A stretch of DNA of 20,000 bases from the IMG/VR virus record IMGVR_UViG_3300031992_000078, positions 56,387-76,386 of that record; one strand, 5' to 3'. The notes under the pieces were generated by a model. The model was not told the origin of the DNA and searched no databases. It saw only the letters and a list, made by a program, of their open reading frames with translations. This stretch comes from an uncultured virus (IMG/VR IMGVR_UViG_3300031992_000078) (lineage: Duplodnaviria > Heunggongvirae > Uroviricota > Caudoviricetes). A program made the translations under genes and the position numbers. This document shows, in pieces, positions 2 to 14,774 of this stretch. Each line of letters begins with the position of its first letter. Positions within the stretch are counted from its first letter, which is position 1.

Positions 2-790
2 ATCGAGCGGGAGAAGTCCGCGGCCGCTTCCGGGAATGCGTCAGGCTCTGCGAAGGCCGCGTCAAATGCTGCGGCCGGAGAAACGTCTGGTGCGAATGGT
101 TTGGCCGAGCCTCCTGTCGCGCCCGCAAGAACGGTTCGTTTCGCGACGGCCACAGACACTTCTGCAACCGGCGAAACGCCGGAGTCGAACGATATGGACA
201 ATGACTCTTCTAGCGTGGCCACAGTCGCGTCGGAAGCGTCCGACGAGACAAAAGGTCCTGTCGCTCGCAAGGGTACGTTCAGCGAAAGTGCGCATTCGCA
301 AGGGTTCATTGCTCCTCGCGGGTCTTTCTTCGATGCAGACCAAATGGAATGGGATTCCCGATCCGGAAAGTACGTCGCGAAGAGAGATGCGAAACCTTGG
401 CTGCCTCCCGCGGCCGGAAAGACAGTTCGCCATTTTCGCACGGACGATCCGCGCAAGAACGGCGGCAAGGAGATTGTCCATTTCACGATCGACCCGCGCC
501 CCGTCGCATTCGGGGAAAATCTCAAGAAGGGATTGATCGTCCCGGTCATTGGCGGCGCCATTGATCTTTTGAAGGACGAAAGCATCGGCGAGACGGCGGC
601 TACAACTGCTCAGGAGATGCTGCGACGGCTTGGCCATTGGCCAAAGGGGACGGCGCATGGAGGATGGCCGTCGTATCGAATGACGAAAGAGGAATATGAC
701 GAGTTTATGAAATTCGTTGAATCCGGGGAAATGCCTCCGCGCCCGAAAGCGGCGCAAGACTCGGGCGATGATTCTACCGCCGAGACGTGA
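2..790 (+). CDS. Hypothetical phage protein, 5'-partial (possibly virion/ejection protein)
   Basis: The frame of ORF 101..790 is open back to position 2 (IEREKSAAASGNASGS...), so the start lies outside the window. A/S/T-rich region followed by a globular-looking C-terminus; directly upstream of the giant gene. Confidence 0.7.
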   Translation: MEREKSAAASGNASGSAKAASNAAAGETSGANGLAEPPVAPARTVRFATATDTSATGETPESNDMDNDSSSVATVASEASDETKGPVARKGTFSESAHSQGFIAPRGSFFDADQMEWDSRSGKYVAKRDAKPWLPPAAGKTVRHFRTDDPRKNGGKEIVHFTIDPRPVAFGENLKKGLIVPVIGGAIDLLKDESIGETAATTAQEMLRRLGHWPKGTAHGGWPSYRMTKEEYDEFMKFVESGEMPPRPKAAQDSGDDSTAET

Positions 791-828
791 TCTTCGTTTC
801 AAACGACAACAATCAATTAGGATTTGCC

Positions 829-3800
829 ATGCCCATTCTTGACAATACGCTTCTTTCCGATGCGGAGCGCGAACGCGAGGCGCCTGCTCCTCATGTCTTC
901 GTGCCTCCGGCTCGACCCGAACCGCGAGCAACGGAACCGGATGTCGCAGAGGAACCGGACGAGACTGGCGCAACACCTTCGACTTCTTCGGAGTTGGAGG
1001 CCCAGACGAATCGCGAACCCACCGCTTCGACAGCGCAGGAGCCGGCCTCCGCCGAATCGGAGACCGCCACTTCCGCGCCGGTCGACGAATGGGCGGCGCG
1101 TTCACAACGTGCCGTGGAATTGCTTGAACGAATTGTCGAAGCACGGGGCGGAGACGCATTCGCACGGTTCGGCAAAGACAATGGACGTGGAATCGAAGGC
1201 CATTCGCTTGCCGAATGGTCGCGCATGTTTGAGAGTGGAAGTCTCGCCGCTCTTGCCGCAAATGGAGACGATGGCCGCCGTGCGTTCGACGAAGCGGAAG
1301 ACTTGATTCTTGATGCGGCCGGTAGAGTCGGCCTGCTTTCGTCGAACATCGAAGACATCGACAACGGACCGGTGTGGCTTCAAGATTTTGGCCTTGTAAA
1401 AGATCGTGAAGACTTGGAGGCGGGCCGGGCGTGGAACGCCGAGCGCCGCGAGGAACAGGTCGACATCGTTCGCAAAATCGACTTTCTCAAACGTTTTTCA
1501 AAGGGGGACGATCCGAGCGCCGGATTTTACGGCATGTCGCTCGATCAGCTTCGGTCTGCGGCTCTCGGGAAGGGAGTTCGCAACCGTGGCGATCGTGGCG
1601 CTCAAGAAGATTGGGATGATTTCGTCAAGCAGGTCAACACCCGCTACGAGCGCGAGCGCGAAGGACGCGGAATCGGGCAGAAGGCGGCGGACGCGTTCCG
1701 CGCCGGATTCGGCGACATCGGCGACATGGGCGAACGCCTGTACATCATCGCCGCCTATGGTGGAGACCGGTCGGCCAATTCCAAGTTCGCCGAACGGATG
1801 CGTGATGTGCAACGCGACGAGGAACGCCGTGGAATCTATCTCCCGGCGACGGTTTCCAGTCTGACCGACATTCGCAAGGACAATCTCGCCGGAGACATCG
1901 GTGCCTACATCATCGAGAACGTTTGCCGCCTCGCGCCGCAGACCGCCATCCAGATTGCGCTCGCCTATGGAACAGGCGGCGCCGCATCGGCCGCCATGTC
2001 CGGAGCCTCTATCGCCGCGAGGCAGGCCGTTGTCCGTGGTGCTGTCACCGCGGTCAACCTTGCGACGACCGTCGCTCTCGATGCGGCCGATACGGCAGGA
2101 CAGATGGTGCAGGAGAATGATGCGCGCGGTCGCCAGAACCTTCTCGATTGGGGAGAGTGGGCCGCCCTCGGCGGCGCATACGTTCTCGCTGACCTGCCGT
2201 CTCCGGTGTTTCGCATGGCGCAGAAAGCCGGTATCGGTCGTGCCGCCCGCACGGCAGGCGAGCAGGCCGTGCGCGACATGGCGTCGCGCTGGATTTACTC
2301 TCCCGGCTCATGGGGCAAGACGATGCTCAACGCCGCGAAGGAGACCGGCAAGAACTTTCTCGGCGAAGCCATCACGGAAGGTCCGATGCAGCAGGGCGCG
2401 TCCTACATCTGGAACGCGCTTGCGAACGGGTCTCCGGGATTCAAGAGCCAGGGAGAGGACGATTTCACTTACGGCTCGGCGTTTATGAACATGCTCGACC
2501 AGGCGGTCGCGGCGGGTCTTTCCGCCGGAGCCGCCGGGGTCGTCGGAAGCGCCGGAACCGCGAGGCGACAGGCAAAGACCTACAAGCATACGAGCGAGTG
2601 GGGCAAACGCCACGACGGAATCGAGCACGCGCTCCTCACGGAGATGCGCAACGCCGGAATCGACGTGTCTTTCACGTCCCTGACGCCCGCCGAGCAGGAA
2701 CTGCTCTACACGTATATCCGCAACCATACCGTGTCTCGCGACCTCGACGCCAAAGTCCGCCATCTGGAAAGGATGAGGAATCCCGGCTATCTTGCGGCGA
2801 ACGAGTTCGAGGCGGAACTTCTCAAGGACCAAAAGAAACTCGACAGGGCAATCGCGAATCTCAAGTTCGTCCAGACGGAGAACGCGAAAATCAATTCCGA
2901 CATCCGGAACTGGCTCAACGACAAGACGAACGGGGACCATGAGGCGGCCGCCGCGTGGTTGGAAGCGTATACGTCCTCGCGCCCGGCGCTCTCGATGGAC
3001 GACATCAAGGCGGACGGGGCTTCTACATTCCGGGCCGACGAGGCGAACGAGACTCTCGGGGCCGCCCTGGACGAAATCAAGAAGAAGAAGGCGTCCGACG
3101 AGTCCGCGAAGAAGATGGCGGAGTTCGGCTACGACGCAACGTATCCGGACATTCTCCCGTCCTACGGCGAAAAGGACGACGGGAAGTCGTCTCACGTCAT
3201 CCGGTTCGAAGAGAACCTGACGGACGAAGGAAAACTTTCCGTCCGCGTCTGGAACGCGGCCGACCCGCACAGGGCCCCGTCGAACTTCTGCACGGAGTTC
3301 GTCGTCGGCGAGAACGCGGAGAACGCCGAGGACGCGCGCCGCAAGGCGGGGGAGGCGGCGGACATGCTTGCGAGGTGGTTCGACGCCCTTCGCGAGTCCG
3401 ACGCGCCTGTCGTGAAGGCGGCGTCCGACCACCTCGCGCGCAACGGAAGGCAGGGGCAGACGGTCGTCCTCTATTCGTCGGACTTCGAAATGGCCCGAGA
3501 ATTGAAGAACGCCGGAGCGAGTCAGGCAAACATCGAGGCCGCCGTCGCCCGCGAGCAATCCGGACAGGACGGCATCACCGTCCCGTTGCAGAACGGACAG
3601 GCAATCATCCTTGTGAACCGCGAGCGGAATGCCACGGCCGCAGACCTCTTCGCGACGATCGATCACGAGACGTTCCACGCGGACTTCGTTGCGTTCGTCG
3701 CCGACGGCATGCAGGACAAGGCGCTTCTCAAGGCACTGGGCGTCGAACGGCCGGAAGCCCCGGAGGAAGGTGCCGACCCGGAGAAGGCCAAGGAATACGA

Positions 3801-6800
3801 GAAGGCGCTTGCCGCTTGGCGGAAGGACGCCAAGCGGCGGTTGACGGTCGCGTTTCTCGGGCTCGACGTTGACCCGAAGACCGGAAAGGACCGCGACTGG
3901 CGTTCGGTGACGGATGGTGAAATCGAAAACGCGGAAGAAGACCTTGCCTGCACGGCTTCGGTTGCCGCAGAAGGCATCGATGGGCGTCCGTTTTCCTACT
4001 TGACGCATCCGTTCCGGGCAGCGCGGATGGCCATCTTCAAGGCGCGCCATCCGGAACTGGATTCCCGGCTTGGCTCGTTCCTCGCCAAGAGGTTCGGCGG
4101 AGATGTTTCAGACGACGCGAAGGCGGAGTTCATTTCAAAGGTCCACGAGCGCGGCAATCTCTTCAAGACGGAAGTCCGCGACGAATCCGGCAACGTCGTC
4201 GGAAACAGGGACACGCCGAGCGTCGTGCGCGGTACGGACCGCGTTGCGCTTTCGCAGGACACGCTCGAACTGGTGAACCGCATCCGAAGCGCGGAGAATG
4301 ACCGCCGCCAGTTCCTCGAAGGAAGCGACGAGTTCGTCCCGCTGTTGGACGACCGCATCGAGAAGACCGTCGACGACACCTGGAACATGATGTCCGGCAA
4401 GCGCGTTCTTTCTCTCGACCCGGCAAAGCGGGATGCGATTTTGAAGGAACGTGCCGAGCGCGAGAAGAAGGCCACGGACGAACGTCGTACCAAGCAACTC
4501 GCCGAAGCCCAACAGCGCGAGGAGAATCTCAAGCAAATCATCCGCCAGGGACGTAGGCAGGGGGAGGCGAAGGCGCGCAACGAGCGCAACGAACTCCGCG
4601 AGCGGTTCGCCGGTCCGGTCCGTTCGGCCGCGGAGCAGCGTTCCGCCTCCGAGCAGGCGCGTCTCGCCGGGATCGGAGAGCGTGATGCCGCTCTCGGCGC
4701 CGCGCTCGAACAGGGGCGCAAGAACGCCGAAGTCGACGAGATGAACGAGAAGGCGAACCTTCTTGGTCAGGAGCAGGCGCGCGCCGCTCTGGAAGAGCGG
4801 GACGAGCTCCAGCGCCAGACGGAGGAAGAGGATGCCCGCCGCCGTGCCGCGCAGGAGGATGTGGACCGAGCGGCCATCGACGCCGAGGAGGCGCAGGAAC
4901 TCCGCGAAGGCGTGATGAACGCTCGCTCAGCCGAACTCGCCGAGGACACCCGGCGCATCAGGCGCGAGGCGGAAGAGCGGCAGGAACTCTCCGAGCGTGC
5001 GGGCGAGCAGGAGCTTGCCGAGCGCGAAGCGGTTGCTCGCGAGCAGATGATTGAAGAGGACGAGCGCGAGGAGGCCCGCCAGCGCGCCAGCGACGAAGAC
5101 GAAGCCCGCGCCGCGCTCGGGGACGAAGGCGTGAGGAGCCGCGGCGCAACGGCCGAAGAGGCGGCGGCGTTCGACAAGGGACCGACATACCACGGCAAGA
5201 CCGGTCGATACCTCTACAAGACGATGCGCGTCGTGAATGGTCATCTCGAATTCCCGATGGCGGGGACCGGAGTCGCCGTGCCGCCCGGCGAGTGGTTGAT
5301 TGCCGAGGACGAGAGCCGTATCGACCCGAAGACCGGGAAGCGTAGGACGCCGCTCGTGTTCGGTTCTTCCAAAATCAAGCGCGACGGAACGGTCAACCGC
5401 CAGAAGGGCGAGGCCGCCCCGTTCCCCGGATTCCACATGGGGACGAATCCGTACATGGCCCACATCGGGCTTGGCGGGAACGCGTCGCAGAAGCACTTCC
5501 AGAACGCGGACTACGTGTGGGTGGCCGTGGACGTGCCGATGGCCCGCACGGACGAATACGCGCAACGCGTCGCCACCGAAGGAAAGGGCGACCCGGACAA
5601 GGCGATGCGCGGCGTCATTCCGGAAGGCGGAATGTACTGGCGCAAGACGAACCCGAACATGAAGGGCAAGTGGGGCGTCGCCGGCGCGATGAAAATCGTC
5701 AAGGTCCTGTCGGACGCGGAGGTGGACGAAATCCTCGACCGCGAACTTCCGGACCGGGTTCGCATGGGACGCCAGGGTGGCGGTCGCTTCAATGCCAAGA
5801 CGATGCAGTTCGAGGGGCAGGACCTCAAGAACTGGAACTTGGAGGAAGAAGAGGCGAAGTTCAACCGTGCCGAAGCGATCAAGGCGGTCCGCAAGGCGCT
5901 TGCGAGCCAGTTCAAGGACGATGCCGGGAACGTCTACCCGACCCGGTATTCGCGCCATCTCGGCAGGGCCATCTCGAAGGAGACGGACGACACCATCGAC
6001 CTGCTTTCCATCGGCGTCCCGATGACGGCCGAGGAAATCGAGGCGAGGTGCCCGGAGTGGGCGGATGCGAAGCGCGCGGCGCAGAAGGTCGAGGCCGACA
6101 TCCGCGACCTGTTCGGCGTGTTTCCGACCTCCGAAATCCGCACGCCGGAGCGCGTCGATTTCAACGACGCCGTAGTCGAGGCCGGATCGTCCGAAACGAT
6201 TACGAAGGAAGCGGCCATTCCCGGAACTGACGTGAAGCTGACTTTGAACGAAGCCCTCAAACGGGGGGAGTCGTACAAGGTCAGGCAAGACAGGATCGCC
6301 GTCGTCGTCATCGGACTTCCGTCCGCCGGGAAGAGCAGCGTGTTCGTCAAGGATGTGAGCCGTGCGCTCCAAGCGCGCGTGCCAGACAACGACTATGTGA
6401 AGCCGGTCTACGCCGAGTTCGAGAACGGACTTGGCGGGAATGCCGTCCACCAGGAATCGGCGAACGTCAACTACCGGATATTGAAGGCCGCGCGCGACCA
6501 CGGGGACAACATCGTCTATCCGATTCTCGGGTACAAGCCGGAGAAGCTGCAGGAGGTCCTTGACTTCTTCAGGGAGGCACGATATTCTGCCCACCTGTTG
6601 TACAACGAACTCCCCGTTCCGAAGGCGGTTGCCCGCCTGCTGACGAGGTACTTGGACAACGGGCGGTATCTTCCGCTCGAACATACCATCTTCAAGGCCG
6701 CCGGAAAGGTCGGTCCAGCCTACGAGGAAAAGAAACATGACTTCGACAGCTACGCCAGATACTCGAACGACGTTCCAATCGGAGCGCGACCGAAGCGAAT

Positions 6801-9800
6801 CGAACAGTCCGACAGCTCCATCCTCGGAAGCATACCCGGTTATGGCGAAGTACGAGACGGACGACTGGGACGGAGACCCGGCGTGCCTGAACGATCCGGA
6901 GTACTGGAAGGAAGTGGAACGAATGTCCAATCGCCCGGAGGTTCTGGAAGCGCGTCGGAAGCGACTGGCGCGCGCTCACGCGGCGGCTCGGTAGTTCCGG
7001 CCGGACGCCAGAAGCAGGCGGGTGTCGCCTACCCGGACGCGTCCGCCGAAATCACGAAGATTCCCGACGGGCACTTCGCCACGGTCAGGAGCCGTGGCCG
7101 CGGAGAGTTCGAGGAGATTCTCAAGAAGAAGCGCCCGGACCTCGACGCGAAGGAGACGGTCAAGAACATCTTTGCGCTCAAGACCCCGAAGGAGCGCAAG
7201 ATCGCGCTGCATTGGATCGTGCGCGGCGGGCTCGCCTTGCCGGAGGACGCGTACAAGGTCGCCGACGCCTTGTCGGTGGCGGAGAAGGCGAAGGTTGACC
7301 CGTTCCGCTACGCGTCGCCGGACGAACTCCTGCTTGCGAACAAGGACTTCAAGCCGAGCGCTCGGCCCATAGACCCGGACACGGAGCAGGCGCTCACGGA
7401 CAAGCGCGACGAGGGAGACGGCATCACGTCCTACCTCGTCGAAGAGTCCAAGTTCGGACAGCTCACGATGCGCCGCATCATCGACACGCACTGGGGCGAG
7501 GACGCGAACCCGTGGTGTCTGCTGGCGAAGAAAAAGAAGTGGACGCACGTCGAGCTGATCAACGACTATAACGCCTATCAGGAGATGGAGCGTTGGTGGT
7601 CGGAGCTTCCTCGCGACGAGCGCGTCAGGATAGCCGGAGGCCGCGCGGACGAGGAAAGCGTCATGGACGCAGACCCGGCGTCGGAATACTATGTTGACAA
7701 CGTGGTTGACAATCCAGTTTCCTTGGACGACGCCTGGACCTACTGGCAGCACTACTCCGCCCTCCCGAAGCGTGTGGCGTTCAAGGACGGGAAACTACTC
7801 GCGTTCATGGCGACGGATGAATACGATCCGGAGTCGGATGACATTTTTGGCGGAGAGTTGATGGAAAGAACTCCGCCTGGTCGTTGGCGCGAGTGGGACG
7901 AATGGTTGCGCACAGAAGAGGGACGCGAGAATCAGGCGTCCTTCGCCGAGTGGATGCGAGTCAACCATCCGGATGAGTACGCAAAGGCGCTTGCTTACGA
8001 ACAATGGTGGGACCGGACGGATACATCGCATCCGAACCTCGACTGGGCGCGCGGAAGCGAAGTGCGGTCTCGTGGCGACGAAGGCGGCGAGGTGCAGGTC
8101 GGCCGCTTCGGCATGAAGCCGGGCTATGACGGTTCTTTGACCATCGAGACGGACCCGGACGGACCCGACAAGGAACTTCATGCAGAGATCAAGCGAATGG
8201 CGCGAGGCCTGCTTGACATCCTTCGCGACGATCCGCTTCCGTCGCAAGTCGATCCGAAGCTGCCGCCGCAATACGTCCTCATCGCGCCGCTCTACAAGAC
8301 GGACATCCAGAACGCCGAACAGGACGCCGCGATGCAGAAACTCGCCGGAACGGACTACGTGGGGCGGTACGAGGAAATCGCACGGCTCTGCGGGACCGAA
8401 TTCGACTATCAATCCGGTCGCGGAATCTTCCAAAACCAGCGCGAGATCAGCGGCCGCGTTGGACTTGGCCGCGTACCGACCGACGTTGCCAACCTCGTTG
8501 CGTCGCTCTTCGCCGATGTCGGCGCCGTCCAACAGCAGAACTCCGCGATCCGCTATACGCAGATTCCGAAAGAAGAGTTCGACGCAATCGAAAACCCGTG
8601 GGAGAAGGCCCGCGTCGTCACGCTCAAGTACGACGCGAGCAAGTTCAACCTCCAACAGATTTCGGACGAACTGCAAGATGTCGGGTTCGACGCGACGCCG
8701 TACAGGAACGGCGAAGTCCTCATTCTCAAGCCGATGGGCGAGTTCTACGACGATGACGGGAACTATTCGCCGGAGAAGGAAGAGAAATTCGAGATTGACT
8801 TTCGGAACGCATACGATATTCTAAAGGGCAAAGGGGCAATCCATGACTTCGAATTCGAATACGCAAGCGAAAACTACCTCGACGGAGAGGCTCGACGCGT
8901 TCTTTACCTCGCTAGGAGGGAAGAGGAACGACGACCCGCACTGGGCCGAGAAGATGTGGGAAGGCGGCAAGGCGGCGTCGGAGCACTACAAGAAGTACGG
9001 CCCGGAAGTTCCGTTCGGGAAGACTCCGCAGAAGTAAAGTCCCGCGGCGGCGAGATCACGCCGGAGGAAGATGCAGCCTACATGGACGCCGTGCAACGCG
9101 GCGACATGAAAGCCGCGCAGAAGATGGTCGAGGACGCGGCGAAGCGCGCGTTCCCGGACAGCGTTCTCATCCAGGACGGAAAGTTTCGCGTCATGTGGCA
9201 TCACACGAACGCGGACTTCAACTCATTCATGGCTTCCGTCAGGACTTCGAGCAAGCTCCGCGGAATCTTCTTCACGCCGCAGGAGTGGGGCTCAATGTCG
9301 AACCACGGCAACATTCACAAGCGGTACTACCTGAACGTCACGAATCCGAAACTCGCCTACGGATACGACGCCGACAAGGCGTACGTGGACGAACTCGCCG
9401 GGCTTCAGAAAGGCGTCGAAGACAGGGACGAAATCGCGAGAATCAACCGCGAGTTCAAGGATCGCACCGGCATCGACGCGTTCCTCGACCCGTTGAACGG
9501 TTGGTACAACGTCCTGACGCCGGAGCAAATCAAGTCCGCGGACCCCGCGACCTACGACGACGCGGGCAACGTCATTCCGCTCTCGCAGAGGTTCAATCCG
9601 GAGAGCAGCGACGTGCGCTCCCGCGGCGGCGACGGTCTCTTCGCCGACGAAATCTACGGACTTCGCACGCGCGATGTGGTGGAGCGCATCAAGGCGGAGA
9701 ACCCGTCCTACGTCTACCGGCCGGAGAAGCGCAAGATCGTCGAGATGGTCGAACGCGGCTTCGCGAAGGCGAAGGCGGACCCGAAGTTCTACCGGGACAC

Positions 9801-12800
9801 GGTGGCCGCGGCTCTCGCGGGCAAGTTCTCGCTCGACACGGACTCGCAGGCGTGCCTGATGCTCGACGAGTTCCTGCGCTCGGAGGCGGCTCGCAAGGCC
9901 CGCGCGAACGTCATCCGGCTCCGCTCGACCGGGGCGACGGCCGAGGAGGTCGCCGCCGCGCAGGCGGAGGCGGACGTACGCGCCGCAGCCCACGAGGCCG
10001 TGGCGGACGCCTACATGAAGTTCGGCAAGGCGCTCTCGGACGGAATGAACCAGCGCAAGGCGGCGCTCGACCCGGAGACAGGTTCGTTCGCCGGACTGGT
10101 GCAGGACTTCGAAGGCCGCGCCGGAGACGGCGCGCACACGACGCGCGACGAACTGGTCGCCATCCGCCGGTCCTGGGACGAAATCCGCACAATGCGCGAC
10201 GCGCTCCGCTCGATTCTCGACCAGGTGGCCGACGGCGGCGCCGATGCCGCCATCCGCGCGCTGATGGAACTGGAGGCCGAAGGCATCCGCAAGAGCAAGG
10301 GCGCCATCGGCCGCCGCCCGACGATCGGCGAGGAGGAGAAGGTCCCGTCCACGGACGACGAAATCGCCAAGTGGGCGAAGGACCGTCTCGTCGGGGCGAA
10401 GTACGACCCGAACGACGTGGAAACGAAACTGGCCCTCCGGTCCATCGTCCGCAAGATTGGACGGTTCCTCCTTCAGCGCGAGATGGACGCCGGGCGTCCG
10501 CTCGCCCGTCCGGAGGAGTTCCGCGGACAACTCGGAATGCTCTGCCGCCGCATCTTCTCCGAAGTGGACGAGACATTCAACGACTGGTCCGACCGCACGT
10601 GGGGCGACGTGTATTCGTCCTACGGCGTGTTCACGCCGGCGACGAAGGACGAACTCGCCCGGCGCCAGACGCAGATGACGGAACTACAGCGTCTCGTCTC
10701 GCAGTTGCAGGACGTGGAGGAGGAGCAGAAGCGCCCGCTCCGCACCGGCGAACAGCGCGTCGAGAGTTCCGAACTCGCGCAGGACCTGCGTGCGCGCATC
10801 CATTCCTTGATGAAGGAACTCGACCTGCCGATCCCGGAGGGCGAGGACGCGGCGAAGTACCTCAAGACGCCGCTCGACACCGTGAAGCGCGCGATGCAGC
10901 GGCGCATCGACCTGTTGCAACGAGCCATCGACGAGCACAAGGCCGTCGAGCGGAACCTCGACCCCGTACCGTACGACGACGAGGCGCTCGGGCTGAAGGA
11001 ACGACTGGAAGCCCTGCGGACGCAGTACGAACTCACGTTCCCGAAGGACGAGAAGGAACTCACTTACGAGGAACGCGTCGAACGTCTGCTCAAAGGTCTC
11101 AAGAACCGCGAGTCCAAACTGATGGCGGAACTGATGGACGCCCAACAGGGCGCCTTCCGCGGCCGCCGCCAGGACGCCAACGGGCTCGCCCGCCTCAATT
11201 CGAAGGTCGTGGAGGCCCGCGAGCGCGTAGCCGCCATCCGCGAGATGATCGGACAGCTCGAAGACGCGGCCGGCGAGAAGGCGTACTACTCGGCGGAGAG
11301 CAAGGCGATCCGCCGGCTCGTGAACGCCAAGCTCCGCCGCCTCTCCGAAGTCAACGGATGGATTCGCAATCCTACCAAGTGGGAGGAGCAGACGGCGAAG
11401 GAAACCCTCGACGTGACGGACCGCCCGCAGGTGAAGGCCGCGCAGGCCCAACTGGACGCCGCCATCGAGAAGTGGGAGCAGGTCCGCGACCAACTCGTCT
11501 GGGACCGCCAGAACGCGTTGAGCAAGGGCCTGAAGTACGCCTTCGGGCTTTTCCAGGTCGCGAAGCGCTGGAAGGCGGCGGCGGACCTTTCCGCCGTCGG
11601 AGTGCAGGGTGCCGTCGCGGGCTTCCTCTACGACCCGCGCATCGGCCTGGACGCCATCTGGAAGGCCGTATTCAAGCGCAAGGGCGAGGGCGGCTACGCG
11701 TTCAGCAAGGAGGCGTGCGACGCCATCATGCAGCACATGATGGACAGCCCGCGGTGGAAGGTCCTCGTCGAGAAGGCGGGCGTCCGCATTTCGAGCATCG
11801 ACTCCGTGGACTTCGCGAAGGCCGAGGAACTCCGTGCGGAGGGCTACGCGGCGAAGCGGATGGAATCCCTCGTGAACAAGGCGACGGGCGGCGTGTTCGG
11901 CGCCGTGACGAAGTTCGGGGACAGAACGTACACGATGCCGCTCGACATCATCCGGTGGTCGTTCGCGAACTCGCTCCTCGACCAACTCGCGCGCGTCCAC
12001 GGCGGCGTGGAGGCCATCCCGGAGGCGGACCTCAAGATGCTCGGGCGCATCGTGAACATCGAGTCCGGCGCGGGCGACCTGTTCCAACGTCTCGGCTTCG
12101 CCGGAATCAACCGCATCATCTGGGCTCCGGGCAAGCTGGCCGGGCAGTTGCAGTCGCTCGCTCTTCCGGTCATCCTCGCGGCGAACCTCGGCAAGTCCGG
12201 CGGCATTTCCGCGAAGGCGGCGATGCTCTTCTTCCGCAAGTGCTGGATGCGCCCGCTCGCCATGTACGGAATGTTCCTCCTGTTCTACCGGATGCTCGCG
12301 CACCTGCTCGGGGACGACGACCACCGCGACGAAATCGGGGAGTTCATCGACACGGACCCGCATTCGCCGTGGTTCGGCCGCGTGAACATCGGCGGCCGCC
12401 GCTTCTCGATTTCCGCCGGACTGGAATCGTACATCTCTCTCATCTACCGCACGAAGGACAAGGAACGGTCCGACATCTACGGTTCGACGCGCAAGGTGCC
12501 GACGGCTTCGGACCTCATCACGAACATGCTCTGGAACAAGGCGAGCCCGGACGTTGGCATCTTCCGCCAGGTCATCAACGGAAAGACCATCGACGGCCGC
12601 GAACTGGAAACGGCCGGAGACAAACTCAAGTTCATGGTGGGCGAAGTGTTCTGGCCTCTCACGATGCACGACATGTACCGCACGGCAACGTCCGACACGA
12701 GGTTCATGCCGAAGCTCGCCCTGCTCGGACTCTCCGCCATCGGCTACTCGTCCAACGACTTCGACTACGACTCCCGGAAACTCGACGTGTCCCGCTTCGA

Positions 12801-13170
12801 CCAGCTCACGAAGCTCACGAAGGAGGACCAGAAGGTATTCGCCAACAAGAAGGGCGAGTACTCCGCCGAGGAGGTCGAGGCCGCGCGGTCGCGCATGCAG
12901 GCGTACCGCAATGACGAGAAGTACGGCAAGTACGCGCGCGACTACGCGCGCGGGCTCGAACTGCGCGAGCGCCTGCGTGCCATCGACAACGAGATCAAGA
13001 AGGCCGAGAAGAAGTACGGCTCGAACAAGAAGGGTCTGGAGGCCGACGCCGAGTACCAGCAGTTGCTTGAGTACAAGGAGCGGACGCTCACGGCGTTCCA
13101 CCGGCTCTACACGCCGGCGTTCCAAGCGGACCTCCCGGCCTTCTACGACAGGTATCGTCCCGCCCGGTGA
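829..13170 (+). CDS. Giant polyvalent protein (~4113 aa), probable virion-packaged/ejected multidomain effector
   Basis: Uninterrupted ORF 787..13170. ATG at 829 has AGGA at 819-822 (GTG 787 is an alternative start). Gly/Ala-rich hydrophobic helices at ~1930-2560, HExxH zincin, coiled coil at ~4440-5130, cargo modules at 5146-9612, helical C-terminus with DPHSPWFGRVNIGG (12355) resembling C-termini of large phage virion proteins. Followed by a terminator. Confidence 0.9.
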   Translation: MPILDNTLLSDAEREREAPAPHVFVPPARPEPRATEPDVAEEPDETGATPSTSSELEAQTNREPTASTAQEPASAESETATSAPVDEWAARSQRAVELLERIVEARGGDAFARFGKDNGRGIEGHSLAEWSRMFESGSLAALAANGDDGRRAFDEAEDLILDAAGRVGLLSSNIEDIDNGPVWLQDFGLVKDREDLEAGRAWNAERREEQVDIVRKIDFLKRFSKGDDPSAGFYGMSLDQLRSAALGKGVRNRGDRGAQEDWDDFVKQVNTRYEREREGRGIGQKAADAFRAGFGDIGDMGERLYIIAAYGGDRSANSKFAERMRDVQRDEERRGIYLPATVSSLTDIRKDNLAGDIGAYIIENVCRLAPQTAIQIALAYGTGGAASAAMSGASIAARQAVVRGAVTAVNLATTVALDAADTAGQMVQENDARGRQNLLDWGEWAALGGAYVLADLPSPVFRMAQKAGIGRAARTAGEQAVRDMASRWIYSPGSWGKTMLNAAKETGKNFLGEAITEGPMQQGASYIWNALANGSPGFKSQGEDDFTYGSAFMNMLDQAVAAGLSAGAAGVVGSAGTARRQAKTYKHTSEWGKRHDGIEHALLTEMRNAGIDVSFTSLTPAEQELLYTYIRNHTVSRDLDAKVRHLERMRNPGYLAANEFEAELLKDQKKLDRAIANLKFVQTENAKINSDIRNWLNDKTNGDHEAAAAWLEAYTSSRPALSMDDIKADGASTFRADEANETLGAALDEIKKKKASDESAKKMAEFGYDATYPDILPSYGEKDDGKSSHVIRFEENLTDEGKLSVRVWNAADPHRAPSNFCTEFVVGENAENAEDARRKAGEAADMLARWFDALRESDAPVVKAASDHLARNGRQGQTVVLYSSDFEMARELKNAGASQANIEAAVAREQSGQDGITVPLQNGQAIILVNRERNATAADLFATIDHETFHADFVAFVADGMQDKALLKALGVERPEAPEEGADPEKAKEYEKALAAWRKDAKRRLTVAFLGLDVDPKTGKDRDWRSVTDGEIENAEEDLACTASVAAEGIDGRPFSYLTHPFRAARMAIFKARHPELDSRLGSFLAKRFGGDVSDDAKAEFISKVHERGNLFKTEVRDESGNVVGNRDTPSVVRGTDRVALSQDTLELVNRIRSAENDRRQFLEGSDEFVPLLDDRIEKTVDDTWNMMSGKRVLSLDPAKRDAILKERAEREKKATDERRTKQLAEAQQREENLKQIIRQGRRQGEAKARNERNELRERFAGPVRSAAEQRSASEQARLAGIGERDAALGAALEQGRKNAEVDEMNEKANLLGQEQARAALEERDELQRQTEEEDARRRAAQEDVDRAAIDAEEAQELREGVMNARSAELAEDTRRIRREAEERQELSERAGEQELAEREAVAREQMIEEDEREEARQRASDEDEARAALGDEGVRSRGATAEEAAAFDKGPTYHGKTGRYLYKTMRVVNGHLEFPMAGTGVAVPPGEWLIAEDESRIDPKTGKRRTPLVFGSSKIKRDGTVNRQKGEAAPFPGFHMGTNPYMAHIGLGGNASQKHFQNADYVWVAVDVPMARTDEYAQRVATEGKGDPDKAMRGVIPEGGMYWRKTNPNMKGKWGVAGAMKIVKVLSDAEVDEILDRELPDRVRMGRQGGGRFNAKTMQFEGQDLKNWNLEEEEAKFNRAEAIKAVRKALASQFKDDAGNVYPTRYSRHLGRAISKETDDTIDLLSIGVPMTAEEIEARCPEWADAKRAAQKVEADIRDLFGVFPTSEIRTPERVDFNDAVVEAGSSETITKEAAIPGTDVKLTLNEALKRGESYKVRQDRIAVVVIGLPSAGKSSVFVKDVSRALQARVPDNDYVKPVYAEFENGLGGNAVHQESANVNYRILKAARDHGDNIVYPILGYKPEKLQEVLDFFREARYSAHLLYNELPVPKAVARLLTRYLDNGRYLPLEHTIFKAAGKVGPAYEEKKHDFDSYARYSNDVPIGARPKRIEQSDSSILGSIPGYGEVRDGRLGRRPGVPERSGVLEGSGTNVQSPGGSGSASEATGARSRGGSVVPAGRQKQAGVAYPDASAEITKIPDGHFATVRSRGRGEFEEILKKKRPDLDAKETVKNIFALKTPKERKIALHWIVRGGLALPEDAYKVADALSVAEKAKVDPFRYASPDELLLANKDFKPSARPIDPDTEQALTDKRDEGDGITSYLVEESKFGQLTMRRIIDTHWGEDANPWCLLAKKKKWTHVELINDYNAYQEMERWWSELPRDERVRIAGGRADEESVMDADPASEYYVDNVVDNPVSLDDAWTYWQHYSALPKRVAFKDGKLLAFMATDEYDPESDDIFGGELMERTPPGRWREWDEWLRTEEGRENQASFAEWMRVNHPDEYAKALAYEQWWDRTDTSHPNLDWARGSEVRSRGDEGGEVQVGRFGMKPGYDGSLTIETDPDGPDKELHAEIKRMARGLLDILRDDPLPSQVDPKLPPQYVLIAPLYKTDIQNAEQDAAMQKLAGTDYVGRYEEIARLCGTEFDYQSGRGIFQNQREISGRVGLGRVPTDVANLVASLFADVGAVQQQNSAIRYTQIPKEEFDAIENPWEKARVVTLKYDASKFNLQQISDELQDVGFDATPYRNGEVLILKPMGEFYDDDGNYSPEKEEKFEIDFRNAYDILKGKGAIHDFEFEYASENYLDGEARRVLYLARREEERRPALGREDVGRRQGGVGALQEVRPGSSVREDSAEVKSRGGEITPEEDAAYMDAVQRGDMKAAQKMVEDAAKRAFPDSVLIQDGKFRVMWHHTNADFNSFMASVRTSSKLRGIFFTPQEWGSMSNHGNIHKRYYLNVTNPKLAYGYDADKAYVDELAGLQKGVEDRDEIARINREFKDRTGIDAFLDPLNGWYNVLTPEQIKSADPATYDDAGNVIPLSQRFNPESSDVRSRGGDGLFADEIYGLRTRDVVERIKAENPSYVYRPEKRKIVEMVERGFAKAKADPKFYRDTVAAALAGKFSLDTDSQACLMLDEFLRSEAARKARANVIRLRSTGATAEEVAAAQAEADVRAAAHEAVADAYMKFGKALSDGMNQRKAALDPETGSFAGLVQDFEGRAGDGAHTTRDELVAIRRSWDEIRTMRDALRSILDQVADGGADAAIRALMELEAEGIRKSKGAIGRRPTIGEEEKVPSTDDEIAKWAKDRLVGAKYDPNDVETKLALRSIVRKIGRFLLQREMDAGRPLARPEEFRGQLGMLCRRIFSEVDETFNDWSDRTWGDVYSSYGVFTPATKDELARRQTQMTELQRLVSQLQDVEEEQKRPLRTGEQRVESSELAQDLRARIHSLMKELDLPIPEGEDAAKYLKTPLDTVKRAMQRRIDLLQRAIDEHKAVERNLDPVPYDDEALGLKERLEALRTQYELTFPKDEKELTYEERVERLLKGLKNRESKLMAELMDAQQGAFRGRRQDANGLARLNSKVVEARERVAAIREMIGQLEDAAGEKAYYSAESKAIRRLVNAKLRRLSEVNGWIRNPTKWEEQTAKETLDVTDRPQVKAAQAQLDAAIEKWEQVRDQLVWDRQNALSKGLKYAFGLFQVAKRWKAAADLSAVGVQGAVAGFLYDPRIGLDAIWKAVFKRKGEGGYAFSKEACDAIMQHMMDSPRWKVLVEKAGVRISSIDSVDFAKAEELRAEGYAAKRMESLVNKATGGVFGAVTKFGDRTYTMPLDIIRWSFANSLLDQLARVHGGVEAIPEADLKMLGRIVNIESGAGDLFQRLGFAGINRIIWAPGKLAGQLQSLALPVILAANLGKSGGISAKAAMLFFRKCWMRPLAMYGMFLLFYRMLAHLLGDDDHRDEIGEFIDTDPHSPWFGRVNIGGRRFSISAGLESYISLIYRTKDKERSDIYGSTRKVPTASDLITNMLWNKASPDVGIFRQVINGKTIDGRELETAGDKLKFMVGEVFWPLTMHDMYRTATSDTRFMPKLALLGLSAIGYSSNDFDYDSRKLDVSRFDQLTKLTKEDQKVFANKKGEYSAEEVEAARSRMQAYRNDEKYGKYARDYARGLELRERLRAIDNEIKKAEKKYGSNKKGLEADAEYQQLLEYKERTLTAFHRLYTPAFQADLPAFYDRYRPAR
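3565..3945 (+). other. Zincin-like metallopeptidase domain within the giant protein
   Basis: HETFH at 3664-3678, preceded by beta-strand-like GITV...AIILVN; candidate distal Glu in AEEDLA near 3931. Metallopeptidase domains are typical of polyvalent proteins. Confidence 0.65.
5146..5760 (+). other. Uncharacterised globular cargo domain (YKTM...PGFH...YVWVAVDV...KTNPNM...MKIVKVLSD)
   Basis: Discrete aromatic/Gly-rich domain between the VRSRG (5131) and RYSR (5944) linkers. I recall this motif series from other large phage proteins; function unknown. Confidence 0.55.
6292..6805 (+). other. Zeta-toxin/PezT-like P-loop kinase domain within the giant protein
   Basis: Walker A GLPSAGKS at 6313-6336 after a hydrophobic strand, then DNDYVK, HQESA, NIVYP and a lid-like AVARLLTRYLDNGRYLP. 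This motif order matches the zeta toxin family. Confidence 0.8.
6560..6588 (+). promoter_or_regulatory. Internal sigma70-like promoter 1 (TTGACT-N17-TATTCT)
   Basis: TTGACT 6560-6565 and TATTCT 6583-6588, 17-nt spacer. Shares TTGACTT and ACGATATTCT with the site at 8795-8822; uses AT-rich codons (cga tat tct) in a GC-rich gene. Confidence 0.65.
6737..6994 (+). CDS. Nested +1-frame small gene 1 (85 aa, or 50 aa from ATG 6842); candidate antitoxin of the zeta-like domain
   Basis: GAGGA at 6724-6728 before ATG 6737. From 6842 the codons are strongly G/C-ending in this frame (gcg aag tac gag acg gac gac tgg...) and give a protein-like acidic then helical sequence, while the giant frame reads as a G/R/S linker. 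Confidence 0.7.
   Translation: MTSTATPDTRTTFQSERDRSESNSPTAPSSEAYPVMAKYETDDWDGDPACLNDPEYWKEVERMSNRPEVLEARRKRLARAHAAAR
7099..8040 (+). other. PcfJ-like (W-C motif) cargo domain within the giant protein
   Basis: NPWCL at 7507-7521, YWQHY, KRVAFKDGKL and WWDRTD at 8005-8022; bounded by VRSRG linkers at 7084 and 8062. Family assignment is tentative. Confidence 0.4.
8269..8560 (+). other. SAM-lyase (T3 SAMase)-like domain within the giant protein
   Basis: Motif order YVLIAP...GIF(8422)...REIS(8440)...ANLVASL...QQNSAIRY(8533) parallels T3 SAMase as I recall it (YVLVSA...GCY...EEKT...ALNVARL...EQDCVLVY). By-eye alignment only. Confidence 0.5.
8795..8822 (+). promoter_or_regulatory. Internal sigma70-like promoter 2 (TTGACT-N16-TATTCT)
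   Basis: TTGACT 8795-8800 and TATTCT 8817-8822, followed by AAGGGG 8831-8836 and ATG 8843. Rare codons (att cta) in the giant frame. Confidence 0.7.
8843..9037 (+). CDS. Nested +1-frame small gene 2 (64 aa); candidate inhibitor/antitoxin of the upstream module
   Basis: Own promoter and SD. The second half has phage-typical codons (aac gac gac ccg cac tgg gcc gag aag...). Its TAA falls inside the VKSRG linker; the giant frame here is an R/G/E-rich linker. Confidence 0.72.
   Translation: MTSNSNTQAKTTSTERLDAFFTSLGGKRNDDPHWAEKMWEGGKAASEHYKKYGPEVPFGKTPQK
9049..9612 (+). other. ADP-ribosyltransferase-like domain (ART-PolyVal type), possibly degenerate
   Basis: DAAYMDAV..GD...AQKMV leader, WHHT at 9196 (usually YHGT), GIFFT, YYLNVTNP, GIDA, and VLTPEQIKSADPATYDDAGNVIPLSQRFN end motif. 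Confidence 0.7.
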
Positions 13171-13238: not shown

Positions 13239-13267
13239 TTGACTTTCCTCCAATTGTCTCCTAGAAT
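13239..13267 (+). promoter_or_regulatory. Near-consensus sigma70 promoter facing attP/integrase
   Basis: TTGACT (13239-13244) - 17 nt - TAGAAT (13262-13267). Confidence 0.75.
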
Positions 13268-13505: not shown

Positions 13506-14774
13506 ATGATAGCAAGCAAAGCAGAAGTTGTCCGCCGCATCCGCGAGACACGCAAGACCATCGACGGGCGGGGCTACACCTACTTCGTCGCGCACGTCGG
13601 GTCGGACCCCATCACGGGGCGCCGCATCGACATCGTGCGCAACAGCCGCGCCGCCCTGATGGACGCCATCAACGACTACTACGCGGTCCTGCGCGCCGGC
13701 GTGATGCCAGGCGACGTGGACGCCGCGCTGAACCCGAAGGACATCGCTGAAGTGCGCGCCGCCCGCGAGAAACTCGGCGGCACGTCCATCGTCGAAGCGG
13801 CCGACATCATCGCCCGTGCGAAGGAAGTCCTCGCCGACGCCGGGCTCGCGGACATCACCATCCTCGACGCCGTGGCGTCGTTCGCGGGAACGAAGACCGG
13901 AGTGAAGCGCACCACACTCGCCGCCGCGTTCGACGCCTACCTCGCCACCTTCAACGCTGAACAGGAGACCTACCGCAAGGTCATCAAGACGCGCGTCGGC
14001 CGGATGGTCGTGGAACTCGGCGCCGAGCGGCTCGTATCCGACATCACGCCGACGGAGGCGATGGATTGGGTCGAGCGCTCGTTCGGCGGACTCTCGGAGA
14101 AGACATACAACAACTACCTCGGAGACTGCCGGACGTTCTTCAACTGGTGCGCGAAGCCCGTGCGCGCCTACTGCCGAGAGAACCCGCTTGCGAGCGCCGA
14201 GAAGCGCAAGGAGGCGAAGAAGCGTCCGGAGTTCATGCCGGTCGATGACGTGAAGAAGTGGTTCTCCATCCTGCTCGCATCCGCGTGCGACGAGAAGTCC
14301 AAGATGATTCTCTGGTGGAACGCGCTCGGGTTCTTCGCCGGCGCCCGCACCGCCGAGATTCACCGGCTCAAGTGGAAGGACGTTGACCTCGACAAGCGGA
14401 CGGTCCTATTCGCCGAGCCGAAGGGCTTCGCCCACGGCGTGCCGCCGAGGTTCGTGAAACTGAACGACGCGGCGATGGCTTGGCTCACGGCTGCGCCTCC
14501 GACGCGACACGGCCCGGACGACCTCGTGTTCGCGAGCGTGGACGAGACTCGTGCGGTGTCCAACTACCTTGCCGTGCTCGCCAAGAAGAACGGCATCATT
14601 CTCCCGAAGAACGCCGCGCGTCACACCTTCATCACGATGCACGCGACGGCCTTCCACGACGCGGCGCTCACGGAGTCCATCGTCGGGACGAGTTCCACGA
14701 TGCGGCGGAGCCACTACCAAGGACTCGTCCGCGAGGAAGAAGCCAAGCGGTACTTCGAGGAGATCAGGCCCTAG
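13506..14774 (+). CDS. int: Tyrosine recombinase / phage integrase
   Basis: 422 aa; AAGGAG SD at 13494-13499; core-binding region (KTYNNYLGDCRTFFNWC), GARTAEIHRLKWKDVD (catalytic R), KNAARHTF and RSHY (catalytic Y). Confidence 0.93.
   Translation: MIASKAEVVRRIRETRKTIDGRGYTYFVAHVGSDPITGRRIDIVRNSRAALMDAINDYYAVLRAGVMPGDVDAALNPKDIAEVRAAREKLGGTSIVEAADIIARAKEVLADAGLADITILDAVASFAGTKTGVKRTTLAAAFDAYLATFNAEQETYRKVIKTRVGRMVVELGAERLVSDITPTEAMDWVERSFGGLSEKTYNNYLGDCRTFFNWCAKPVRAYCRENPLASAEKRKEAKKRPEFMPVDDVKKWFSILLASACDEKSKMILWWNALGFFAGARTAEIHRLKWKDVDLDKRTVLFAEPKGFAHGVPPRFVKLNDAAMAWLTAAPPTRHGPDDLVFASVDETRAVSNYLAVLAKKNGIILPKNAARHTFITMHATAFHDAALTESIVGTSSTMRRSHYQGLVREEEAKRYFEEIRP

Follow-up and report, generated by a model that had tools for sequence, protein, structure and literature searches.

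Small phage genes embedded in larger ones in the +1 frame, and the fusion of genes by bypass of a stop codon, are already known. In phage lambda, Rz1 lies wholly inside the larger Rz in the +1 frame, and both are translated. Exchangeable cassettes are familiar from the CdiA-CT/CdiI and Rhs polymorphic toxins, in which variable C-terminal cassettes bounded by a short conserved peptide motif are swapped by recombination and a small cognate gene comes after, while in the zeta-epsilon (PezAT) system epsilon, of ~90 amino acids (aa), is encoded upstream of zeta. Polyvalent proteins, in turn, are thought to be the first weapons of a phage or plasmid in the cell it has entered. Here we describe a 20,000-nucleotide (nt) stretch of DNA from an uncultured member of the Caudoviricetes (positions 56,387 to 76,386 of IMG/VR record IMGVR_UViG_3300031992_000078; hereafter the window), in which a giant polyvalent virion-protein gene (787..13170, + strand, ~12.4 kb) holds two stretches whose DNA is shaped as protein-coding sequence in the +1 frame, at 6842-6991 (segment A) and ~8885-9034 (segment B).

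A first-pass annotation of this DNA had proposed two small open reading frames (ORFs) nested in the giant gene, and according to the ORF list both of them, A (6737..6994, + strand, 85 aa) and B (8843..9037, + strand, 64 aa, from ATG 8843 to TAA 9035-9037), do lie wholly within it in its +1 frame. When the gene was scored in 409 intervals of 120 nt with a codon model derived from the gene itself, frame 0 was best in 396, and nine of the 13 exceptional intervals fell at the nested regions (6757-6996 and 8857-9066), all with the +1 frame best, the other four lying at the 5′ end. The same two +1 blocks came out when the codon model was instead derived from other genes of this phage. In six-frame scoring, the log-likelihood per codon of segment A was 0.15 in the +1 frame versus -0.30 in the giant frame, and that of segment B 0.26 versus -0.38; control stretches read in the giant frame gave 0.34-0.36, and values of -0.30 and -0.38 are typical of out-of-frame reading. 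The G+C content of third codon positions (GC3) in segment B was 0.85 in the +1 frame versus 0.43 in the giant frame, and along the gene (mean 0.80) giant-frame GC3 fell to 0.44-0.60 only at the nested regions, in the first 750 nt and in one interval at 7792. A running score taken codon by codon placed the switch points at ~6830-6860 and ~8880-8905, with frame 0 resuming at the +1 stops. The claimed passage of codon bias into the nested frame was therefore confirmed, far beyond chance, but it begins at ~6842 and ~8885 and not at the ATGs named for the two ORFs. The core segments are A at 6842..6994 (+ strand; 50 aa from ATG 6842 to TAG 6992-6994, MAKYETDDWDGD...) and B at 8885..9037 (+ strand; ~50 codons, ERLDAFFTSLGGKRNDDPHW...), and in both the codon usage of the genome is found in the alternative frame.

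No comparable switch was present in 1351 scored intervals of three other giant genes (L012-L014), where only four intervals deviated, in a P/A/E-rich run and before a start; no deviating block was seen in locus L004, which is one and the same record as L012. Among 14 other ORFs of the phage, nine had no deviating interval and five had 2 to 18, at least some of which probably reflect crude ORF calls. The 5′ end of the giant gene itself deviates too.

Near-identical DNA was found in runs labelled sheep and goat gut metagenomes, and contigs from four runs were compared (X3, X5, X10 and the metatranscriptome X14, with X10 and X14 providing short pieces only). Metagenome contig L003 aligned without gaps over 2400-7532 at 93.6% and over 8098-9131 at 96% identity, the X3 contigs spanned 6400-7535 and 7730-9131, and a 48-kb X5 contig spanned 6487-7535, 7730-8069 and 9040-9300. 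Both the giant and the +1 frame are open in L003, X3 and X5 where covered, with no insertions or deletions among the differences listed, an observation that is weak alone because long alternative frames are common here. ATG 6737, ATG 6842 and TAG 6992 are all kept in L003, and among the differences listed for X3, which were read from 40 of 150 rows and extend up to 7840, short of nested ORF B, none changes ATG 6842 or the TAG.

The ratio of non-synonymous to synonymous substitution (dN/dS) was calculated by the Nei-Gojobori method for the window against L003 and against X3. Compared with L003, the giant frame gave 0.10 over 2401-6735, 0.22 over 6100-6735 and 0.16 over 6997-7530, and 201 of the 290 differences outside 6737-6994 (69%) fell on giant third positions. 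Over 6842-6967, dN/dS in the +1 frame was 0.31 (L003) and 0.06 (X3), with 0.85 and 1.67 in the giant frame. This pattern is reversed in 6737-6841, where the comparison with L003 gave 1.9 in the +1 frame and 0.33 in the giant frame, indicating that the selected frame flips at ~6842, where an ATG stands. The earlier placement of the start of A at 6737 was thus not upheld, since its first 35 codons (6737-6841) carry no +1 constraint. Within segment A, 8 of 19 changes were synonymous in the +1 frame (p = 0.03), or 11 of 22 when those particular to X3 were included (p = 0.002), against an expected fraction of 0.21, and 8 of the 22 fell on giant third positions compared to 69% elsewhere (p = 0.001). 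The first 25 codons (MAKY.TDDWDGDPACLNDPEYWKEV) carry most of the signal, with four of six changes synonymous (p = 0.014), and at 6971-6978, in the overlap with an RSRG motif of the giant frame, changes are again giant-frame synonymous, as at 6975 and 6978. The annotation had suggested checking for an open +1 frame with dN/dS below 1, which was found for A on these 19-22 changes only, while B, identical in L003, offered no informative variant. The changes in A suggest, inconclusively at this number, that purifying selection on the +1 frame continues while the giant frame drifts.

The ~50-codon +1 stretches look like genuine genes in a shifted frame, so each is probably either a small gene embedded there or the scar of a recent fusion. 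Our preferred reading, to which we give about an even chance, is that the fusion of effector cassettes into the polyprotein engulfed small coding sequences, which the giant frame now reads as unconstrained linker. It is the simplest account and calls on known mechanisms only. The two segments stand at the 3′ ends of two lineage-specific cassettes, the zeta-kinase cassette and the module at 8080-8884 (module B). When such a cassette joined the polyprotein, the small coding sequence at its end would have been swallowed; the giant frame would overprint it as an unconstrained G/R/S-rich linker and regain selected sequence at an [RK]SRG junction, exactly at the +1 stop; and the small sequences would still be translated by internal initiation on the giant mRNA. 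Since its +1 frame appears to be under purifying selection, segment A is probably translated, as a 50-aa peptide from ATG 6842. Segment B is probably translated from ATG 8843, and inspection of the sequence from there to the codon-usage switch of B found no ATG, GTG or TTG. We infer these start sites, and translation itself, from the observed codon usage and the changes in A; the peptides may in addition have a function tied to the module upstream. The giant frame must nevertheless be read across both cores, because no separate start is found close to the next modules, which are always internal in the other giants, and because [RK]SRG resumes in frame 0. By these comparisons the +1 feature is limited to one lineage, consisting of the window, L003, X3, X5 and the giant homologue P0005. 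The arrangement resembles lambda Rz/Rz1 in that a small gene would lie wholly inside a larger phage gene in the +1 frame; Rz1, however, is a lipoprotein partner of Rz, whereas here the host frame appears to be an unconstrained polyprotein linker and the putative peptides have no signal or lipobox.

The junctions between modules give the cassettes their boundaries. As had been noted, both nested ORFs stop at or near an SRG linker, A ending 8 nt past RSRG and B at KSRG: in the giant frame the RSRG junction at 6973..6984 (+ strand) overlaps the last codons of segment A, and the KSRG junction at 9037..9048 (+ strand) is immediately 3′ of the segment B stop. Six [RK]SRG motifs occur between modules, including an RSRG that opens cassette B at 8065..8076 and further copies at 5134-5145, 7087-7098 and 9616-9627, all on the + strand, and since each is spelled with different codons, it is the peptide motif that is conserved. 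We consider these motifs candidate processing sites for a protease. In the 48-kb X5 contig, the cassette at 8069..9040 (+ strand), comprising module B and nested segment B, is replaced as a whole: 970 letters are skipped at 8069-9040 and 874 others stand instead, both lengths being 1 mod 3. This exchange spans one SRG junction to the next, nested ORF B included, and because it runs from junction to junction with the frame kept, the unit of exchange is the cassette plus its embedded segment. The [RK]SRG junctions and the X5 swap are like the cassette organization of CdiA-CT/CdiI and Rhs, but in those systems the immunity gene is 3′ of the toxin stop and does not overlap it, whereas here translation must continue through the segment. 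A broader extension of our reading, which we regard as doubtful, is that the polyvalent protein is built of effector-plus-immunity cassettes exchanged at [RK]SRG, whose immunity or chaperone genes were swallowed into linkers and are still translated in the +1 frame. If true, one DNA stretch would serve both as a spacer of the injected polyprotein and as the source of a peptide by which the adjacent effector is kept from harming the producer or lysogen.

The ORFs themselves, their shared 11-mer and the promoter-like motifs, on which the first-pass annotation had also relied, are not beyond chance for a GC-rich giant gene. The gene wholly contains 24 other-frame + strand ORFs of at least 50 aa, the longest of 1239 aa; its +2 frame is open for 1239 codons (9195-12914) without coding signal, so ORF length means little in this DNA. 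The common 11-mer CATGACTTCGA does occur only at 6736 and 8842. Among random 300-nt pairs from the giant gene, however, 15% have an 11-mer in common; for a 10-mer the figure is 38%, and for at least two separate 10-mers it is 9%, the observed pair having three. In the giant frame CATGACTTCGA represents codons for HDF[DE], which in the zeta module is part of the conserved C-terminal portion of the domain. An HDF[DE] peptide stands ~55-80 residues before an SRG junction in three modules, two of them in the window (6736-6747 and 8842-8853) and the third being the middle module of P0005 (aa 2441-2447). Of the proposed promoter strings, TTGACTT was found at 6560 and at 8795, one base off the implied 8796, with a third copy at 13239, and ACGATATTCT was present only at 6579 and 8813. 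The resulting promoter-like matches are TTGACT-17-TATTCT at 6560..6588 (+ strand, 9/12), within the coding sequence of the zeta module, and TTGACT-16-TATTCT at 8795..8822 (+ strand, 9/12). Promoter-like sites in the window number 7, compared to 2.8 +/- 1.7 in shuffles; the best-scoring of them, TTGACT-17-TAGAAT at 13239-13267 (10/12), precedes the integrase gene. L003 retains the hexamers, although these code for conserved residues, and has GGG in place of the ACGA that precedes TATTCT at the 6560 site. Separate promotion of the nested ORFs is therefore not borne out, the motifs being at chance level and the ACGA not kept in L003. A Shine-Dalgarno (SD) sequence had been claimed for each nested ORF; the SD-like runs, among them GGAAG 11 nt before ATG 6842 and AAGGGG 6 nt before ATG 8843, are weak to moderate and do not exceed chance, and an SD is used by only part of the genes of this phage.

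Several observations weigh against a still-translated embedded gene. The ribosome-binding sequence before ATG 6842 is weak, and the C-terminal, basic half of peptide A varies freely, with ~10 non-synonymous versus 5 synonymous codon changes. The selection test comprises 19-22 substitutions in one segment and two relatives of shared ancestry. For segment B the evidence is codon usage only, L003 being identical to the window over 8705-9057. Divergence between the window and L003 is mosaic, from this identical stretch to a single change in 5800-6099, so that local conservation alone proves little. The 353-nt identical block (L003 6342-6694) ends just past KSRG, has flanks that differ by at least 5% and includes the promoter-like site at 8795 and the whole of nested ORF B; it is probably a recent recombination tract. 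G/S/R/P-rich linkers also occur 3′ of the zeta modules in P0033 and P0034, and such a linker is thus not odd in itself. Neither peptide matched a Pfam or PHROG family, antitoxin families included. Among 1.84 billion representative proteins, peptide A had two matches, both tandem-repeat junk, and peptide B had no homologue among proteins of near its length or longer (113-2000 aa). The sheep-gut metatranscriptome X14 held contigs 100% identical to the window, of 157 nt over 6704-6860 and 151 nt over 9098-9248, but contigs from this RNA library indicate presence only and carry no strand, start or expression level.

The main rival explanation accounts for the anatomy equally well. Each cassette would formerly have been a stand-alone gene, and a one-base insertion ~50 codons before its stop would have let the new frame bypass that stop and join the next module, leaving a non-functional scar in which the old tail is no longer translated. 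Plausible insertion sites are present (CCCGG at 6836-6840 and GAGG at 8886-8889), the passage from frame 0 into the +1 frame at the switch reads as smooth protein-like sequence, and in both cases the cassette at whose 3′ end the segment stands is rare and appears to be a recent acquisition. The +1 frame has the normal codon usage of the phage and so would be the older one, as in known stop-bypass fusions and viral overprinting, where one DNA is likewise read in two frames and the frame of normal codon usage is the older; here, by contrast, the younger reading would be a polyprotein spacer and not a new functional protein, and the older seems still to be selected. That 50 out-of-frame codons stay open is unsurprising, with a probability of ~0.4 in this DNA (44 stops in 2605 codons), and the nearly free evolution of the C-terminal half of peptide A also agrees with a scar. 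A scar does not account, however, for the +1 constraint: a dead frame should have a dN/dS of ~1, as opposed to the 0.31 and 0.06 found in the +1 frame beside giant-frame values of 0.85 and 1.67 (p = 0.002-0.03). Nor was tail A found in frame in any of the 1.84 billion representatives, and in A an ATG stands exactly at the switch. We therefore rate a non-functional scar as possible but rather unlikely. A composition artefact, in which a selected G/R/S/P-rich linker mimics +1 coding through G/C-rich first codon positions, is the least likely of the alternatives and already disfavoured. Non-frame-0 intervals with high +1 GC3 are seen at the gene's low-complexity 5′ end as well, and the linkers of P0033 and P0034 are similar. 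The +1 translation of that 5′ end is arginine-rich junk, however, and not the ordinary protein-like sequence of the nested segments; giant-frame third positions in the nested segments are A/T-rich (GC3 0.43-0.47), which amino-acid composition does not explain; the other giant genes, linkers included, show no such intervals; and the giant frame is without constraint in the core of A.

The first-pass annotation had itself proposed that the +1 ORFs are antitoxin or immunity genes with their own sigma-70 promoters at 6560 and 8795, expressed, for example, in the lysogen and giving protection of the producer or superinfection immunity. This is a special case of the embedded-gene reading, and we judge it unlikely. 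It agrees with a zeta-toxin-like module upstream of A, with a temperate phage, with promoter-like matches whose TTGACT recurs in the site at 13239, the likely promoter of the integrase gene, and with a cassette plus small ORF that is swapped at a conserved junction and recalls toxin-immunity cassettes. The antitoxin function drew no support from the family and homologue searches, in which neither peptide resembled an antitoxin or a member of another family; the promoter matches do not exceed chance, with the longer common string not conserved; the selected part of A begins at 6842, 250 nt off the proposed promoter and not at the common 11-mer; and module B has no recognisable toxic fold. Programmed +1 frameshifting by a share of the ribosomes near 6840 and 8885-8920, ending at 6994 or 9037 and yielding truncated polyproteins with a folded tail, is very unlikely. 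Shifts of this kind are known at such sites in prfB, yeast Ty elements and Listeria phage PSA. Each +1 stop falls at a module junction, and candidate shift sites are found near B, where GCT AGG AGG G combines tandem rare arginine codons with an SD-like AGGAGG, and near A (CCC GGT). The two sites have no motif in common, however, and no Rfam family reached threshold. RNA folding was equally unremarkable (z-scores 0.41, 0.58, -1.33 and -0.46, versus -0.95 and 0.34 in controls), and the ATG that stands at the switch in A is in keeping with ordinary initiation. Small coding sequences engulfed by fusion, and probably still translated, thus remain the reading we prefer.

Searches for the function of the modules supported one of the two labels given earlier. 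The zeta-toxin-like P-loop kinase domain upstream of A (6253..6792, + strand, giant frame) matched PF06414 at 22.9 bits, against a cut-off of 22.3, when the cassette (aa 1455-2018) was searched as a separate piece. BLASTP alignment with the zeta modules of P0033-P0035 reaches aa 2002, and HDFDSYARYSNDVPIGARP lies within the conserved C-terminal part of the domain. The locus is in this respect like zeta-epsilon (PezAT), having a zeta-toxin-like kinase domain upstream of segment A, but peptide A is downstream, has a 50-aa core and matches no family or homologue. When the zeta module and peptide A were modelled as a complex, from alignments of 6 and 2 rows respectively, the score was 0.01 and the mark 0.32, which speaks neither for nor against binding. 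The S-adenosylmethionine (SAM) lyase label for the module upstream of B found no backing: module B (8080-8884) had no Pfam match at E <= 1 and none in the Atlas, its sole match among PDB sequences (E = 2) was unrelated, and its AlphaFold 2 model, with a mean predicted local distance difference test (pLDDT) score of 47, was too poor for a fold search. Peptide A compared with peptide B, and each with in-frame tails of other modules, gave nothing significant, the A-B score being reached by 11.6% of shuffles. Scanning viral contigs with the zeta region, both peptides and module B revealed no relatives; the one match, L002, is due to a coiled coil that aligns by chance in a low-GC helicase. A first genome-contig scan found no relative either, and a second returned five loci (L007-L011) with the same 21 residues at the same identity, of which the one inspected, L007, encodes a marine alphaproteobacterial membrane transporter that has the motif NDPEYWK by chance. 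A tblastn search of GenBank phages gave six records, with only remote zeta-toxin and uncharacterised-protein matches.

Judged from its domains and gene order, the giant protein is in itself a typical polyvalent protein. The gene is a 4127-aa ORF from GTG 787, and its database twin P0004 begins at ATG 829. Several unrelated effector or enzyme domains occur in the one polypeptide, among them an ART-PolyVal-like domain (9175..9543, + strand; PF18760, aa 2797-2919, E = 2e-5, 25.8 bits, under the cut-off of 31.2) and a phrog_30118 domain. A word-indexed search with aa 1800-2800 as query returned 32 giant homologues of 2493-6987 aa, many with polyvalent-protein Pfam families (PF18760, PF18838, PF18763, PF18798 and PF18819). 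P0005 is a mosaic close relative, with 96% identity over aa 1780-2110, and the remaining homologues match mainly the middle module (aa 2065-2443), which is present in nearly all. With the window's own entry set aside, 31 homologues remain, and of these P0005 and P0033-P0035 alone have the zeta module and P0005 alone has module B (aa 2432-2700). Within the widely conserved middle module, 7535-7730 varies, X3 and X5 having 170 other letters for 194 and L003 and P0005 also differing. A candidate metallopeptidase motif, HETFH, is present in the N-terminal third. The 5′-most 750-900 nt of the gene (787-1670) encode a P/E/A/T-rich N-terminus, in place of which P0005 has unrelated sequence, and this region looks like a mosaic 5′ end.

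The virus record of which the window is the right-hand end is 76,386 bp long and has direct terminal repeats and a G+C content of 62%. The giant gene lies on the same strand as, and 3′ of, genes with PHROG matches to terminase, portal/adaptor, major head, tail-fibre and virion structural proteins, and on this evidence it closes the late structural block; from this position, delivery of the giant protein together with the DNA is plausible. Directly 3′ of the giant gene is an integrase gene (13506..14774; phrog_1, E = 7e-31), which indicates that the phage is temperate.

The locus is thus like the polyvalent proteins of Iyer et al. 2017 (PMC5512222) in having a giant multi-domain protein in a phage structural operon and an ART-PolyVal-like domain. 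The main text of that article uses none of the words overlapping, frameshift, linker and zeta toxin, and the portions considered make no mention of +1 coding segments embedded at the ends of modules. Among the full-text literature matches listed, no description of coding segments embedded in polyvalent-protein linkers was found. The two segments bear on how the modules of polyvalent proteins are acquired and kept harmless in the producer. They give a concrete picture of module capture, in which reading would run through a neighbouring coding sequence that thereby becomes linker. If the peptides are not made, the locus would be a clean, datable example of gene fusion by frameshift. If they are made, the linkers of such proteins would be a new place for small genes that are invisible to gene callers, and the frame-wise codon test would provide a simple means of searching for them in other giant genes.

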